Virus record (IMG/VR): IMGVR_UViG_3300013102_000002
Coordinates: 96,001 to 160,000 of that record
Direction: 5' to 3' (one strand)
DNA length: 64,000 nucleotides
Origin: a virus
Notes under the pieces: model-generated
What the model saw: the letters and a program-made list of their open reading frames with translations, nothing else
Database searches by the model: none
What the model was told of the DNA's origin: nothing
Position numbers and translations under genes: made by a program
Shown: positions 5,152 to 10,477 of the stretch, in pieces
How the letters are laid out: each line of letters begins with the position of its first letter
Numbering within the stretch: position 1 is the stretch's first letter

Positions 5152-6483
5152 TTGAAAAAAGACAGAGATCAGCTTGAAACATTAATTGCGGAGACAATTG
5201 CAGAAGTTAAAGTTGATCGGAAAAAAGTGTTGAAAGTTAATAATTTCCTCTCTGAATCAGGAGTATCATTAGGAACATTTGATGAGATATCAAAGGGAGA
5301 TAAGCAATTATCAACATTAGAATCATCAATGTTATGTGTTTTATCCGATGCTCTGTATGAACTAACTGCTAACGGGAATCTCAAACCTGACCAATGGTTT
5401 ACCACTAAAGAAATAAGTTATGCAAAAAAGGAATTAATGAACAATACAGAAACCAATAGAATAATGTTGCCTATAGCTCTTGAAAATGTTGAGATGGTAA
5501 GTATAGACAATTATATCACTAAAATTAAGATGTCCGATTTAGTTCAATGGTTTCACTCGCAGTTAATCATTTATGATTTTGATACTCAAAGAAGTGCAAA
5601 GTTTAAAACTGGTAAGAATGGAGTTGTACCTGTACCAGATATTAATTTAAAAAGCGTTGTAGATATTGCAGATAATATGTTAAATGGTACATACCTAGAG
5701 GATATGATTACTCTAAATATTTACTCAGACGAAACTGAGGCAGTTGATTATAACTCTAAATCTCGGCTGTTGACGGTTAATGAACAAGCGGTAATATCTA
5801 TCCTTGATGGGTTTCATCGTCTACAGGGAGGTGTGAGGGCCTGTGCAACCAACCCCGAGTTAGAGCAGATGATGATTCTTTCAATTAGATCATATGATAC
5901 AGATACGGCCAAGAAGTATTTTGGACAAATCAATACCATAAACGTAGTGAAAAAAGAAAGATTGAAGGAACTGAAGTCTCAAAAATTCTCAGATTTAGTC
6001 GTTAAAGATCTTCAACAAAAAACTGATCTTAAGGGCAAGATTGCATCAGCATCAAGAATAAGCGAATTGGCTGGACAATTGACCACCTTTGACATACTTT
6101 CACATGCTATTGACAATGTTTATAAACCTAAAAGCAGACTTGATGCAATGGAGATATCAGAAAAACTCACGAAATTTTTTAATTGGTTGGCAGGTAGTTT
6201 TGTTGATGAGTTTATAACAAATCCTAACAATTATAGGGATGAGAATATTAATCATTCTCTTATATTTTTAGGATATGTCGTAATTGCTAAATACTTTGAA
6301 GACAACCAAATTCCATACAAGGACATAAAGAGTTTTATCGAAAATAAAATAGATTTTAAAGACAAGAAGTTAATTGAGCTTTTAAATAATAAGCGTGGAA
6401 TCAACAATGCAAAAGTAAGAAATGATGTAATTAAATATTTTGAGCGGCTGATAGGAATAGGAGTGGATCAAGATGTCCAATAA
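5152..6483 (+). CDS. DndB/DGQHR-like (ParB/Srx fold) protein, SPbeta YopQ-like lysogeny-switch component
   Basis: ISILDGFHRLQG motif, YDFDTQR, F.QINT; lies directly upstream of the MrpR-like gene as yopQ-yopR do in SPbeta. Confidence 0.75.
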   Translation: MKKDRDQLETLIAETIAEVKVDRKKVLKVNNFLSESGVSLGTFDEISKGDKQLSTLESSMLCVLSDALYELTANGNLKPDQWFTTKEISYAKKELMNNTETNRIMLPIALENVEMVSIDNYITKIKMSDLVQWFHSQLIIYDFDTQRSAKFKTGKNGVVPVPDINLKSVVDIADNMLNGTYLEDMITLNIYSDETEAVDYNSKSRLLTVNEQAVISILDGFHRLQGGVRACATNPELEQMMILSIRSYDTDTAKKYFGQINTINVVKKERLKELKSQKFSDLVVKDLQQKTDLKGKIASASRISELAGQLTTFDILSHAIDNVYKPKSRLDAMEISEKLTKFFNWLAGSFVDEFITNPNNYRDENINHSLIFLGYVVIAKYFEDNQIPYKDIKSFIENKIDFKDKKLIELLNNKRGINNAKVRNDVIKYFERLIGIGVDQDVQ

Positions 6484-7468
6484 AATATATGAAGATGGAT
6501 TTTTTAATGAATCCCATAAAGAAATGTATCTTAAAGATCTAAGTGAAAAAACTTACGTGTCCTATGCAAGAGTCCTAAAAAGAGCACGATATGTAGAAGA
6601 ACAATTAGGTAAAGACCTATATAACTTTAATGTGTCTGAGATAGAACAACTACTTACATTTATGTCGCCTGGGTCTTATTCAGTAAGCGGTGGAAACATA
6701 AACGTAATTAGAACTTATATAAGATGGGCAATTCAACAAGACTTAAGAGTTGATAACATCAATCCGTTAGACTCCGTTATCAGTGATGAATTTATAAACA
6801 AGTTTATTGACACAACAAACAAGAAACTATTTACCGAAGAAGAAATTAATACAATCGTTGGTGGACTACAAAGCTTCCAGGATGCAGCAATAATACAATG
6901 TCTGTTTGAGGGAATAATGGGACATGAGTACTCTGAGATTTTAAACATACTCAAAGGCGATGTAGATAGGGATAGTACTAAACTAGAGGTAAGAAATTCT
7001 CCAGCATCAGGACCAATGGAAAGAAGAGTAGCCGAAGTGAGTCCTAAATTAATGAACTTACTGTACAGTGCAGCAAACGAGACAGAATACTTAAAGTTTA
7101 ATGGGATGAGTAATTCTAAAGCTCAGAGAATCGAATTAATCGAGAATGAGTATGTATTTAGATCGGTTAAACTCAGAGTGGTTAATTATGAAAGAGCAAG
7201 TAATCATTTAGTGTTAAGAAGAATAAAGAGTATTAGGGAATGGTATGGATATCCTCATCTAACTGCAACAGGAATAAAAAACTCAGGTATGCTTAAGATG
7301 GCTAGAGATCTTTATGTAGTAAATAAGACTTTAACCCGAGAAGATATAAATAAGATTTGTAAACGATTTGGAGCGAACGCAATTGCTACAACAAGGCTCA
7401 CAAAAGACTTTTTAAATGTAGATACAATCAGGTCGCTTTATCCAGAAGTAGATGAAGAACAAGCCTAA
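6473..7468 (+). CDS. mrpR: MrpR/YopR-like master repressor of lytic cycle (catalytically degenerate tyrosine-recombinase fold)
   Basis: Integrase SAM-like N-terminus, FTEEEI, LFEGI.G...SEILNI...D; the HxLRH motif is replaced by TGIKNSG. Confidence 0.8.
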   Translation: MSNKIYEDGFFNESHKEMYLKDLSEKTYVSYARVLKRARYVEEQLGKDLYNFNVSEIEQLLTFMSPGSYSVSGGNINVIRTYIRWAIQQDLRVDNINPLDSVISDEFINKFIDTTNKKLFTEEEINTIVGGLQSFQDAAIIQCLFEGIMGHEYSEILNILKGDVDRDSTKLEVRNSPASGPMERRVAEVSPKLMNLLYSAANETEYLKFNGMSNSKAQRIELIENEYVFRSVKLRVVNYERASNHLVLRRIKSIREWYGYPHLTATGIKNSGMLKMARDLYVVNKTLTREDINKICKRFGANAIATTRLTKDFLNVDTIRSLYPEVDEEQA

Positions 7469-7487
7469 AACTTGTTCTTCTTTTTTT
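7454..7487 (+). terminator. Intrinsic terminator after mrpR-like gene
   Basis: GAAGAACAAG-CCTAAAA-CTTGTTCTTC plus T7. Confidence 0.8.
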
Positions 7488-7498
7488 GTTTAAAAGTG

Positions 7499-7562
7499 TT
7501 GACTTTGGCTTTTACGCATGATATATTGAGTACATAAGAAATACATATATTTATTAATTAAA
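7499..7562 (+). promoter_or_regulatory. SigA-type promoter of the agr-like operon with phage operator motif
   Basis: TTGACT-17-TATATT with TG extension; reverse copy of TTTAATWAATAAATAT at 7547-7562. Confidence 0.7.
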
Positions 7563-7591
7563 ACAACATCATAAAAGGAGACAAGAGAAAG

Positions 7592-8248
7592 ATGCTAGAT
7601 GCGATTATTTATGTAGGGTTTGCAGCAATTGAAGTTTACTCAATTATGTTTTTGATAATGTCAATTGCAAGGATGAATATTTTTGAATACATAAAGGAGT
7701 CTACGGTAGGAGTAGTGATTGTTTCGATCTGCACTTACTTATTTAAAGAATCTACGATATTGAGTCAGATATCTCCTATGATATGTCTCCTGCTGTTTTT
7801 ATCAATTTTAATCTTTATCTTTAGGGTTTCAACAATCCACTCAATAATCATTGTGTTGATCGGATACATAACATGCCTTATTATACAGGGAGTATTTATC
7901 TTTATTCCAACAATTTTTTCAAACTTAACCTTTGACGAAATAAAAGCCAACGATACTCTGAGATACTCCTTTCAAACAATTAATGCAATAATCATCTTCT
8001 CCCTGGGGCATTTTCTTAGAAAGAAAAACATTGGATTTTTATTTGTTCCTTATGCACCATCATTTAAGTTTAAAATCACAAAAACAAATTTGAATATCGT
8101 CTATCTATTGATACTTGCAGTACTCGCATTAAGTTCAATTCTAGAGATCGGTAAGATGTACATTGGAATCTTTATGCTAATCATTCTGTTTAATTTCGCG
8201 CTATTTATGGGACTGAGAAGAGAAAGAGGGTCGGTTAAGTTTGATTGA
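7592..8248 (+). CDS. Polytopic membrane protein resembling an AgrC sensor module without the histidine kinase domain
   Basis: About 6-7 hydrophobic segments, no H-box or HATPase; overlaps the agrB start. Confidence 0.7.
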   Translation: MLDAIIYVGFAAIEVYSIMFLIMSIARMNIFEYIKESTVGVVIVSICTYLFKESTILSQISPMICLLLFLSILIFIFRVSTIHSIIIVLIGYITCLIIQGVFIFIPTIFSNLTFDEIKANDTLRYSFQTINAIIIFSLGHFLRKKNIGFLFVPYAPSFKFKITKTNLNIVYLLILAVLALSSILEIGKMYIGIFMLIILFNFALFMGLRRERGSVKFD

Positions 8249-8777
8249 TAAAATATGCGGATTGGCTACAAACTATTTTCATAAATATGATGGAATGCCC
8301 GAAAAAGACGTAATAGAATATTCGCTTAAATTCATCTTAACAAATATAATTACATTTCTATTAATTATAGCATTGGGACTGACAACTGGGAATATCATCA
8401 ATGTTCTTATTGCTGCATTATCTTTTTCTTTACTAAGAGTTTTCTCTGGGGGGATACACATCAAAAACCCCGATTTATGTATATTAACATCTTTGACTGT
8501 GGTTTATGCATTAGCAAATCTACCAAGTTATATTAGTCCTGAATATGTAAAAGTTTTTATGGTCATTACTTTTCTATTAGTAATTATATATGCTCCTTCA
8601 AAAATAGAAGATCACTCTATATTAAGAAAAGAAAAGCACTATATATTTAAAATAATTTCCATAATTATAGTGTTTGCTGGAATCATTGGCAAGAATGAAA
8701 TTATACAGTTTTCTTTTTTTGTGCAAAGTCTAACCCTCATCAATATTCGCATGAAGGGGGGTGAAATTAATGAATAA
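8241..8777 (+). CDS. agrB: AgrB peptide-processing membrane protease
   Basis: LRVFSGGIHIKNPDLC (catalytic His and Cys), YSLKF, IYAPS, QSLTL motifs. Confidence 0.93.
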   Translation: MIDKICGLATNYFHKYDGMPEKDVIEYSLKFILTNIITFLLIIALGLTTGNIINVLIAALSFSLLRVFSGGIHIKNPDLCILTSLTVVYALANLPSYISPEYVKVFMVITFLLVIIYAPSKIEDHSILRKEKHYIFKIISIIIVFAGIIGKNEIIQFSFFVQSLTLINIRMKGGEINE

Positions 8778-8904
8778 ATTCATGAAGAAAATTGCGCCAG
8801 TAATGGGCACACTGTTTTCAGCAGTTGCAGTTCTAAGCACAGCTTCGACCGCATCTGCTTTGTGGCTCGGTAGTAATCCGGCTCCAAAGAGTTTGAGAAA
8901 GTAA
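8770..8904 (+). CDS. agrD: AgrD-like cyclic lactone autoinducer precursor (44 aa)
   Basis: GGGGGTG RBS; MNKFMKKIAPVMGTLFSAVAVLSTASTASALWLGSNPAPKSLRK: amphipathic leader, TASxxWx core, PxPxxL tail; overlaps the agrB stop; not in ORF track. Confidence 0.88.
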   Translation: MNKFMKKIAPVMGTLFSAVAVLSTASTASALWLGSNPAPKSLRK

Positions 8905-8973
8905 AATTTAGGCGAATCGTCTCCTCCCATTTATATAGTGGGAGGATATGCCGCCAAATTGGAGGCTATTATT

Positions 8974-9363
8974 TTGGGCGATAGAATAATGGTTATCAAA
9001 GTTGAAATAGATCTGAAAAAAAAGGAATACATAACCGGGGAAGCCCAATGGCTAGAAGTAGAAAAAATATTGAATACAAGAGTTGAAAGAATAAAAGGAC
9101 GAGACAAAATCATAATCAATACTACAGAAGGGTTGTTTTTTTATAATGTACTAGCAGACAACTTCACATCTTTAATGTCGGAATTAAATGGATTTGAAAT
9201 AGCTGATAGAGGTGTAATCGTTAATCTTGAGAATGAGGTTGCTCTTGACCTAGATAAAAGAGTTATTGTATTTGAAGACTATCCTAGTATCATAGCTCCA
9301 GTGGGAGGATCACGACTTCCTGATATTAAGAAGTTAATAAAAAAATGGGTACTAAAAAAGTAG
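8974..9363 (+). CDS. Stand-alone LytTR DNA-binding protein (no receiver domain)
   Basis: IIINTTEG...L...GFEIADRGVIVNL...D..KRVIVFE LytTR pattern; TTG at 8974 is 8 nt after GGAGG (track start 8938). Confidence 0.75.
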   Translation: MGDRIMVIKVEIDLKKKEYITGEAQWLEVEKILNTRVERIKGRDKIIINTTEGLFFYNVLADNFTSLMSELNGFEIADRGVIVNLENEVALDLDKRVIVFEDYPSIIAPVGGSRLPDIKKLIKKWVLKK

Positions 9364-9410
9364 TACTCATTAAAAAATAAATATATATAAGTTAAATCGT
9401 TAATCAACCA

Positions 9411-9462
9411 TTGCAATAAAGAAATATTAAATGTATAATTAATAAATAAGAACATTTGTTCC
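9411..9462 (+). promoter_or_regulatory. SigA-type promoter with LexA/DinR box
   Basis: TTGCAA-17-TATAAT (9411-9439); AGAACATTTGTTCC at 9449-9462. Confidence 0.7.
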
Positions 9463-9683
9463 TGTTTTCATCATCCGACACGAACCGACAAATTATAACC
9501 TCCGAAGAAAAATATGGCAATTGTCAACACTAAAGTTGTTGCACAATTATCGTATTGAAATAGTATCACATTAGATATATGATATATTTACCACTTATGA
9601 GTGAGGGAGCCGATGTCTATTTTTCAACTCAGATATGATAGTAGTAACAACGGGGAGCATTTCAAAAAAGAGGGGATACGCAC

Positions 9684-10076
9684 ATGCACTTATCAATGAT
9701 CAGAGAACTCTCGATGGCACTAAACGTTGATTCTAATGCTGCTGGTTTCTGGAATAACGTACGTTATCTATTTAAAACAGATGATGAGGTCAGGTCATTA
9801 CTGCATGAGTGTGCTGGGAAATCGAGAAGAGAAATAGATAAGTATATTTCAAAAGTAAGGAATGAAAAAATAAAAAAGTATCGTTTTCTGTCTTTAAATG
9901 ATTTTGTAAGTAGCTTCAATGTCGATAAGATTACTGCTCTCGAAAGGATGTTCCAAGAGCCAATTGATATTTCGAAACTATCCAAATTGACTACCAATGA
10001 CCCAACCCGCATATTCACTATACATAGCAACCTACCACTTGCGGTGTGGTTCATGAGTTTTGTAATCTATTTGTAG
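9684..10076 (+). CDS. Hypothetical protein
   Basis: 130-aa ORF, GAGGGG RBS, followed by CCGGGA...TCCCGG hairpin. Confidence 0.7.
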   Translation: MHLSMIRELSMALNVDSNAAGFWNNVRYLFKTDDEVRSLLHECAGKSRREIDKYISKVRNEKIKKYRFLSLNDFVSSFNVDKITALERMFQEPIDISKLSKLTTNDPTRIFTIHSNLPLAVWFMSFVIYL

Positions 10077-10143
10077 TTGTAGTAGAGTATTTGTGAAATT
10101 ATGCACGTTATTGTAAGCCGGGAGTAAAATCCCGGTAAAACAA

Positions 10144-10198
10144 TTTAATAAATAAATATATAAAAAGTATTGACGCATTTAAATTGACGGAGTATATT
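10144..10198 (+). promoter_or_regulatory. Early promoter with TTTAATAAATAAATAT motif
   Basis: Motif at 10144; TTGACG-17-TATATT at 10170-10198. Confidence 0.7.
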
Positions 10199-10268
10199 AA
10201 AGAAGAAGAGAGAAACAAACAAAAGCAAATCTTAATGAAGTTAATAATTTTATCAAGAAATTTAATGT

Positions 10269-10342
10269 GGGTCTTTCGTCTAATTGGTTAAGGCTTCTAT
10301 CTCATAAATAGAATAATGCCCGTTCAAGTCGGGTGAGACCCA
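10269..10342 (+). tRNA. tRNA with CAT anticodon (elongator Met or lysidine Ile2); CCA not encoded
   Basis: Acceptor GGGTCTT/GAGACCC, D arm GTCT/AGGC, anticodon arm TCTAT-CTCATAA-ATAGA, T arm GCCCG-TTCAAGT-CGGGT, discriminator A. Confidence 0.9.
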
Positions 10343-10354
10343 TAGAATTAAAAT

Positions 10355-10445
10355 GCCATGCGAAAGCATGTTGAATATATAGTCTTACGTAAGTGAGGTT
10401 ATAGATATTCTAATACTGAAAGGTGGTGAACCGACAAACTCAGTT
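10355..10445 (+). ncRNA. Candidate structured RNA downstream of tRNA
   Basis: CATGC-GAAA-GCATG and CTTAC-GTAA-GTGAG GNRA-capped stems, the latter extended by GAATAT...ATATTC; ACTGA...TCAGT third stem. Confidence 0.4.
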
Positions 10446-10477
10446 TTGTACGATACATATAGAAGTGGGTAAGAATA

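Follow-up and report, generated by a model that had tools for sequence, protein, structure and literature searches.

What does a peptide-signaling cassette without phosphotransfer domains do beside the master repressor gene of a phage? The question is raised by positions 7592–9363 of a 64,000-nucleotide stretch of the IMG/VR virus record IMGVR_UViG_3300013102_000002 (hereafter the window), which covers bases 96001–160000 of a record that is complete at 174,510 bp, carries direct terminal repeats, and belongs to a 174-kb, SPbeta-like phage of Paenibacillus. Four genes are located there on the plus strand, encoding a seven-helix membrane protein, an AgrB peptidase/cyclase, an AgrD-like peptide precursor, and a putative LytTR-only DNA-binding protein. 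An original prediction, made from the letters alone, had read these genes as a candidate new, self-contained communication system of the phage; all four open reading frames (ORFs) were recovered at the coordinates given there, and their placement right after an mrpR-like gene was confirmed, as the MrpR gene ends at 7468. The answer developed below, to which we give slightly less than an even chance, is that the cassette may be a self-contained, phosphorelay-free agr-type peptide module wired into the MrpR/SOS lysogeny switch and acting on an early promoter by direct contact.

An AgrC Sensor Module Without a Kinase

The first gene of the cassette (7592–8248, plus strand), preceded by the ribosome-binding site AAAGGAG at 7576, encodes a 218-amino-acid (aa) membrane protein that is the proposed peptide receptor. 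The protein has no Pfam match and is related to phrog_15604 (E 8e-8); its AlphaFold2 (AF2) model (predicted local distance difference test score, pLDDT, 81) contains seven helices, and the chain ends about 10 residues past helix 7, with no dimerization and histidine phosphotransfer (DHp) domain and no ATPase domain. The stretch that joins helices 5 and 6, residues 145–166, is a conserved loop. In the ESM Atlas, the fold gave template-modeling (TM) scores of 0.69–0.75 over 205–211 residues to clusters of 432–460-aa kinases, 87–100% of which carry HATPase_c_5, compared with TM-scores of at most 0.39 to unrelated membrane proteins. When a 19-member profile of the family was run against 401 genomes of the class, its matches covered the first 184–210 residues of 406–471-aa proteins encoded just upstream of agrB, and one of these (L114, 471 aa) is an AgrC-type kinase with SPOB_a, HATPase_c_5, and HATPase_c domains, whose N-terminus was matched at E 1.3e-7 per genome. 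On the basis of the fold scores and this profile match, the membrane protein is a homolog of the AgrC sensor module minus the kinase.

Three further comparisons were made. A word-based search for longer (fused) relatives returned none at E ≤ 1e-3, which is weak evidence; an hhalign comparison of the family with nine mixed kinase N-termini, for which the target alignment was poor, gave a probability of 13%; and a PDB sequence search and a Foldseek search returned nothing, the best rows being G-protein-coupled receptors with a TM-score of 0.2 in a library in which no AgrC sensor was matched. Separately, proteins of 406–450 aa encoded just upstream of agrB in other Bacilli (L108–L113) join the same N-terminal sensor module to a C-terminal extension of about 200 aa, for which Pfam detected no kinase domain in the three proteins scanned and weak coiled-coil-like matches only; these proteins are another kinase-less, or cryptic, form of AgrC.

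AgrB and the AgrD-Like Precursor

The second gene (8241–8777, plus strand) encodes a 178-aa AgrB (PF04647, E 1.2e-24). R66, G71, H73, and C80 are invariant in 14 homologs, with a His–Cys spacing of 7, and the Pfam match together with the invariant H73 and C80 bears out the intact catalytic pair that had been described.

The third ORF (8770–8904, plus strand, start ATG 8770) was recognized as encoding an AgrD-like precursor of 44 aa by its position and C-terminal motif. Its earlier designation as AgrD stands with regard to length and position and is weakened in two respects: the ORF contains no cysteine, with Ser at the ring position, and its score against TIGR04223 (E 0.16, 12.2 bits) is below the cut-off of 19. 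The predicted ring is S-A-L-W-L, followed by GSNPAPKSLRK. A small ORF occupies the same position in 31 of the 32 other cassettes inspected, and a tail motif, (H/N)-x-P-E-x-P-x-E-L-(R)K or a close variant with C-terminal P-x-(E/S)-L-(R)K, is common to 31/32. The aligned ring position, five residues before the His/Asn, is Cys or Ser in many of these peptides: some cassettes have Cys (C-FWIM), and the phage types have Ser (S-WTVI, or S-ALWL in the present phage). Staphylococci are known to make Ser-lactone autoinducers.

Among the chromosomal AgrD-like peptides, the largest group (L047, L051, L052, L055–L057, and the related L026–L039), with the ending ...VLKPLYHSPEIPKELRK, lacks both Cys and Ser at the ring position, and the residue four places ahead of its His is a conserved Lys. 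These VLKPLYHSPEIPKELRK-type peptides might use a different cyclization chemistry or act as a linear signal.

A Divergent LytTR-Only Protein

The fourth gene (8989–9363, plus strand) encodes a 124-aa protein that, taken alone, has no Pfam LytTR match even at E < 1. An exhaustive HMMER search identified 12 representative relatives, all of 118–127 aa; PF04397 is matched by 5 of the 13 family members (best E 3.4e-7), and the best match of the family profile in the PDB is the LytTR domain of AgrA (E 0.03). The AF2 model (pLDDT 82) was compared with the PDB by Foldseek, in which the ten best matches are all LytTR domains (of ComE, AgrA, or 3d6w) at a probability of 1.00, with TM-scores of 0.52–0.60 by query and 0.65–0.71 by stand-alone LytTR targets. 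Because of the PF04397 matches within the family, the AgrA profile match, and the modeled fold, the small protein is taken to be a divergent LytTR-only protein. The assignment made originally thus holds for fold, for family, and for the absence of a receiver domain, and fails for a Pfam match of the protein itself. Two alternative starts exist, TTG 8974 behind GGAGG and GTG 8938; ATG 8989, which gives the length of 124 aa and matches the homologs, is the likely start, and GTG 8938, adopted in the first reading, was not sustained.

Absence of Phosphotransfer Domains and of AimR

No HATPase_c and no Response_reg domain was detected in the complete phage genome. The proposal that both phosphotransfer domains are missing together was therefore upheld: the sensor module stands without a kinase, the LytTR protein stands without a receiver, and neither domain is encoded elsewhere in the 174,510 bp. 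AimR, the receptor of the arbitrium system, was likewise not detected in the phage; NF038310 reached only 18.6 bits against a cut-off of 70, in the helix-turn-helix (HTH) part only, and tblastn with the AimR of phi3T gave E ≥ 0.25. Nor was AimR found in 401 Paenibacillaceae genomes, for each of which few candidates were scored. In phi3T, a phage of Bacillus subtilis, aimR-aimP-aimX is located about 4 kb upstream of yopQ-yopR.

Association With the MrpR Lysogeny Switch

The gene that precedes the cassette (6473–7468, plus strand) encodes an MrpR-type master repressor with a tyrosine-recombinase fold (PF22822, E 5.5e-24; PF22823, E 2.4e-14; both above cut-off) and 26–31% identity to YopR of phi3T/SPbeta. 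Its upstream partner (5152–6483, plus strand) is a YopQ-like DndB/DGQHR protein (PF14072, E 7.9e-6; TIGR03187, E 1.1e-8; phrog_5732, E 4e-111), and a YopQ-like gene precedes mrpR in all related loci. Both MrpR domains and a 5′ YopQ-like gene, the features of an SPbeta-type lysogeny switch, are thus present, in the yopQ-yopR order of phi3T.

MrpR homologs were found at 42 loci in 38 of the 401 Paenibacillaceae genomes, and the cassette is positioned directly 3′ of mrpR at 6/42; it directly follows yopQ-mrpR in the window and in L004, L005, L007, and L010. When 20 further mrpR loci were fetched, six had kinase-less agr modules at the same place in permuted gene orders, either AgrB-sensor-(AgrD)-LytTR, or LytTR, a few small genes, and then sensor-AgrB-AgrD. 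A kinase-less agr module is therefore found directly downstream of mrpR at ≥12 of the 26 loci examined, in three gene orders, a frequency far above that of chance adjacency in 6-Mb genomes. This comparative evidence is a strong link between kinase-less agr modules and the SPbeta-type lysogeny switch, and it is in respect of placement that the originally proposed tie to the lysis–lysogeny decision was supported.

The cassette is also more divergent than its surroundings. Between the window and L005, MrpR and YopQ are 95% and 94% identical, as against 60% for the membrane protein, 50% for AgrB, 73% for AgrD, and 75% for the LytTR protein, and the predicted ring is SALWL in the former and SILWL in the latter. 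Between the window and L004, the P. tianjinensis prophage, the flanks are 83–84% and the sensors 88% identical, and the ring is the same. This mosaic, hypervariable pattern resembles that of agr specificity groups and arbitrium pherotypes and may be called pherotype-like.

Farther upstream in the window, a gene for a PemK/MazF-like toxin (1945–2349; PF02452, E 7e-22) is accompanied by a small HTH gene on the opposite strand (approximately 2433–2579), and the pair is kept upstream of yopQ-mrpR in L004–L007. The sequence GAACAAATGTTC at 1823–1834, about 110 nt upstream of the PemK/MazF-like gene, is the phage's only LexA-type box other than the one described below, and this gene could be an SOS-controlled toxin within the lysogeny module.

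Distribution in Chromosomes and Other Phages

A survey of synteny in phages and chromosomes found the four-gene unit in both, and chromosomal copies are common. The LytTR-only family profile (E ≤ 1e-5) matched 130 of the 401 Paenibacillaceae genomes (about a third), and the membrane protein, AgrB, and LytTR genes occur in the same order in all 32 of the Paenibacillaceae loci fetched, a conservation that suggests that the unit is under selection. Three kinds of context were distinguished in the wider flanks of 18 loci: prophages, always with the arrangement yopQ-mrpR-cassette; a housekeeping context (type A), in which the cassette occupies a conserved site flanked by thymidine kinase/DinB and an HTH gene and has no kinase in its vicinity; and a context in which a divergent orphan AgrC-type kinase adjoins the cassette. 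Most of the loci inspected, including L049, L053, and L059, have no adjacent kinase. Because the same unit is present in chromosomes, housekeeping contexts included, the cassette is not phage-specific, and the phage has captured a common bacterial module; the notion of a phage invention, contained in the original prediction, is not borne out.

Neither blastn of 6400–9700 nor tblastn of the membrane and LytTR proteins matched any published phage, and AgrB alone led to the Brevibacillus phages Davies, Abouo, and Emery. These unrelated phages have the same four-gene unit beside integrase and repressor genes, and the product of the fourth gene, 121 aa long, matches LytTR weakly (E 0.007). Hargreaves et al. 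(2014, PMC3901668) had noted in Davies, Emery, and Abouo an AgrB, a putative AgrD, and membrane proteins that resemble AgrC and have no ATPase domain, and kinase-less agr proteins in a phage are accordingly not new. A paper on the autoinducing peptide of Paenibacillus polymyxa (PMC12180512) reports an agr locus of agrB, agrD, and agrE and mentions neither LytTR nor a histidine kinase. No description of the four-gene unit was found in literature searches, and it is a new form of agr signaling, undescribed as a unit in the searchable literature.

Some individual loci depart from the common arrangement. In Davies, agrB is preceded by a tandem pair of paralogous membrane proteins (219 and 222 aa; L001 2604–3263 and 3340–4008), as it is in Emery, and a single signal gene may thus be served by two receptors. 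One cassette of the P. tianjinensis chromosome (L048/L118; G001, 2.71 Mb) retains intact membrane-protein and LytTR genes with a 57-aa remnant of agrB, while agrB is intact at the orthologous loci of three other genomes; the locus may represent an orphan receptor pair or early decay.

A LexA-Controlled Early Promoter and a Candidate LytTR Operator

The 320 bp 3′ of the LytTR gene contain non-coding detail that is conserved across phages whose sensors are 21–30% identical. An early rightward promoter at 9411–9439 (plus strand; TTGCAA, a 17-nt spacer, and the extended −10 TG-TATAAT) is kept in related phages. Just past the −10, at 9450–9461, lies a LexA (Cheo-type) box, GAAC-N4-GTTC, one of two boxes in the 174.5-kb genome and invariant in 10/10 phage loci with this cassette type. 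It is followed at 9476–9490 (plus strand) by the direct repeat CGACA-N5-CGACA, which is unique in the phage genome; the repeat occurs 12–15 nt past the LexA box, with a variable spacer sequence, in nine of the ten loci, and the tenth has TGACA as its first unit. The arrangement of repeat and LexA box was found at none of the 20 other mrpR loci. A conserved TGTCAA (TTGACA on the minus strand, approximately 9521–9526) follows the repeat in all ten related loci. CGACA-N5-CGACA is a candidate LytTR operator, and since it lies at approximately +30 to +45 of the SOS-controlled early promoter, its occupancy would most simply repress early transcription. The first gene of this SOS-controlled early unit (9684–10076, plus strand) encodes a 130-aa protein with no Pfam match, and a gene for a protein of 123–159 aa comes after the cassette in every related phage.

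Several other features were noted in and around this region. A leftward promoter-like site (−35 at 9520–9515, −10 at 9497–9492; 11/12 matches) faces the rightward promoter of 9411–9439, and the LexA box and the CGACA repeat sit between the two facing sites (9411–9530), which may form a convergent-transcription switch or send an antisense RNA into the LytTR gene. A 13-nt motif common to the cassette and early promoter regions (7548 and 9436) was considered as an operator and rejected, because it is a frequent AT-rich motif of gene ends that recurs 16 times in the window. An ORF-free stretch of 400 bp (10077–10477) separates the 130-aa early gene from a gene for a protein resembling single-stranded DNA-binding protein; it contains a promoter-like site of its own (10170–10198) together with paired GC-rich segments and may be the source of a small RNA or a leader, and positions 10428–10438 within it are a second exact copy of GAACCGACAAA.

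Expression Signals of the Cassette

Nearly all genes of the window are on the plus strand, and its proteins have their nearest relatives in Paenibacillus; the membrane protein is 88% identical to a P. tianjinensis prophage homolog. The cassette is set apart from mrpR by an intrinsic terminator at 7454–7480 (plus strand; a 10-bp stem and then a T-run), which is kept in five phages, and by a strong promoter at 7499–7527 (plus strand; TTGACT, a 17-nt spacer, and the extended −10 TG-TATATT), whose −35 and −10 are invariant in an alignment of five related phages. The membrane-protein gene overlaps agrB, and agrB overlaps the AgrD ORF, by 8 nt each, and the first three genes are translationally coupled. 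Between agrD and the LytTR gene lies a GC-rich hairpin (8905–8960, plus strand; −33.3 kcal/mol, z −3.7, with 0/200 shuffles as good), a candidate partial terminator or mRNA stabilizer, and a second hairpin spans ATG 8989. Six related phages have a hairpin of different sequence at the same agrD-LytTR position, followed in one by a U-run. The statement that one promoter drives all four genes therefore stands for the promoter itself and is uncertain for transcription of the whole cassette, because this strong hairpin separates agrD from the LytTR gene.

Proposed Mechanism and Alternative Explanations

In the self-contained module proposed at the outset, AgrB would convert AgrD into a secreted cyclic peptide, probably a Ser-lactone with the ring SALWL, which would bind the membrane protein. 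The membrane protein would then hold or release the LytTR protein by direct contact and without phosphorylation, by analogy with the membrane inhibitors of streptococcal LytTR regulatory systems (LRS), and the freed LytTR protein would bind CGACA-N5-CGACA, which lies about 30–45 nt past the start of the early promoter under LexA control. In this way, the phage would tune early lytic transcription to the number of nearby cells carrying the same phage pherotype, a logic that, by analogy, would be that of arbitrium built from different parts. A predicted complex of the membrane protein with the LytTR protein scored 0.06 and was used neither for nor against this scheme. A wider generalization, possible rather than probable in our view, is that in the temperate phages of Paenibacillus and Brevibacillus the kinase-less agr cassettes take the place of arbitrium, as a second and unrelated family of peptide communication between phages, with pherotypes, in which a membrane-sensed cyclic peptide and contact control of a LytTR protein gate an SOS-dependent early promoter, and that they belong to a widespread and previously undescribed phosphorylation-free branch of agr in bacilli.

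Several observations weigh against the self-contained module. Its AgrD has no Cys and scores below the cut-off of the AgrD model. Classical LytTR sites are 9-bp repeats about 21 bp apart, unlike the CGACA repeat, which consists of 5-mers one helical turn apart, and the co-occurrence of this repeat with the cassette is confounded by the common descent of the ten phages. LytTR-type direct repeats were sought upstream of 13 cassette promoters with no convincing result, and the cassette promoter looks constitutive, so autoinduction is not evident. The remaining points bear on two alternatives, in which the cassette acts on the host or depends on it.

The first alternative, which we consider rather unlikely, is that the cassette is a moron that manipulates, or eavesdrops on, the kinase-less agr cassettes of the host, whether a non-cognate peptide jams them or an extra receiver is supplied, and alters host physiology instead of phage lysis–lysogeny. 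The housekeeping contexts of chromosomal cassettes imply that the ancestral role is bacterial and that the phage copy could be such a moron; the Paenibacillus genome that harbors the closest prophage contains two additional copies, at least one copy is present in 130/401 genomes, a strong promoter of its own follows a terminator ahead of the phage cassette, as is usual for morons, and the PHROGs category of the membrane protein is "moron, auxiliary metabolic gene and host takeover." A generic moron, however, would not be expected to turn up repeatedly and independently in the position directly after mrpR, with three different gene orders, and next to the integrase in phages that are unrelated; moreover, the phage peptide rings (SALWL, SWTVI) are strongly unlike the chromosomal ones, and the early promoter region contains a conserved repeat that is specific to the cassette type.

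It is more improbable that the cassette is not self-contained and that phosphotransfer is needed, with the kinase-less sensor forming heterodimers with an AgrC-type kinase of the host, so as to add or block specificity, and the LytTR protein competing or cooperating with AgrA-type regulators of the host. Such partners would be at hand, since each of five Paenibacillaceae genomes, Paenibacillus hosts, encodes 3–9 AgrC-type kinases (HATPase_c_5), and the membrane protein has the sensor fold of HATPase_c_5 kinases. Some chromosomal cassettes also adjoin an orphan kinase: in L050 (5452–6840, minus strand), a 462-aa AgrC-type kinase with SPOB_a and HATPase_c_5 is divergent from the kinase-less cassette and has no adjacent response regulator, and L058 is probably similar. 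Most cassettes inspected, however, have no kinase nearby (type A; L049, L053, and L059), and a unit that moves across Paenibacillus and Brevibacillus phages would need a compatible host kinase each time.

A role of the membrane protein in peptide making, export, or immunity instead of reception, with the LytTR protein as an ordinary constitutive phage regulator, is very unlikely: agr systems do need additional membrane factors for leader removal and export (SpsB and MroQ in Staphylococcus aureus), the membrane-protein gene is translationally coupled to agrB through its 8-nt overlap, and the hairpin parts the LytTR gene from the first three genes, but the fold and sequence match an AgrC sensor module and not a protease or transporter, and L048/L118, a single case, keeps the membrane protein and the LytTR protein where agrB is a remnant.

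Comparison With Known Systems

The cassette shares with canonical agr (agrBDCA; Staphylococcus, Listeria, and clostridia) the catalytic His/Cys of AgrB, a polytopic sensor with the AgrC fold, a LytTR output, and a small, putative AgrD-type precursor with a five-residue ring position and a Pro-rich, charged C-terminal tail; in both, agrB, agrD, and the sensor are hypervariable among close relatives. It differs in that the sensor stops after helix 7, without DHp or ATPase domains, and the regulator has no receiver, so that neither an AgrC kinase (DHp and GHKL ATPase) nor an AgrA with receiver and LytTR domains is present; in addition, the genes run in the order sensor-agrB-agrD-LytTR, the ring has Ser in place of Cys, and no autoinducible LytTR-repeat promoter is evident. 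The phage phiCDHM1 (agrB, agrC, and agrD, no agrA) is likewise a temperate phage with agr signal genes and, unlike the cassette, retains the full kinase. The LytTR-only fourth gene, the spread in chromosomes, the association with mrpR, and a phosphorylation-free mechanism are all absent from the earlier account of the Brevibacillus phages (PMC3901668).

In the LRS of Streptococcus mutans (HdrRM and BrsRM), a soluble LytTR-only regulator is co-encoded with a membrane protein, for which inhibition at the membrane without phosphotransfer has been proposed; the regulator gene comes first and the membrane gene directly next, the promoters contain direct repeats for autoregulation, and the membrane proteins belong to families such as DUF2154 (Zou et al., 2018, PMC6193735). 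The pair of LytTR-only regulator and membrane protein is conserved in 32/32 loci of the present cassette, in which, unlike in LRS, the membrane gene comes first, agrB and agrD lie between the two, direct repeats were not found ahead of the cassette promoters, and the membrane protein resembles AgrC. LRS have no known signal or signal synthase, whereas AgrB and AgrD provide a candidate signal here; if the proposed mechanism is correct, the cassette would offer the first candidate ligand class for these orphan systems, and a sensor module coupled to a LytTR protein without kinase or receiver would be a new route of signal transduction, independent of phages.

Arbitrium (AimR-AimP-AimX), carried by SPbeta-like Bacillus phages, is to date the chief peptide system shown to let phages gauge the number of their own kind. 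Arbitrium and the cassette belong to the same yopQ-mrpR lysogeny region, and in both the peptide and receptor, here predicted, diverge between related phages. The parts are unrelated: arbitrium uses a linear hexapeptide, import by Opp, and a cytoplasmic tetratricopeptide-repeat receptor, whereas the cassette would use a cyclic peptide sensed at the membrane. If the proposal holds, this small (1.8 kb), portable cassette would provide a pherotype-specific means of acting on lysogeny in Paenibacillus, a genus with both plant probiotics and pathogens of bees among its members, and as a second system, built from agr components, it would indicate that phages have solved the counting of kin more than once.

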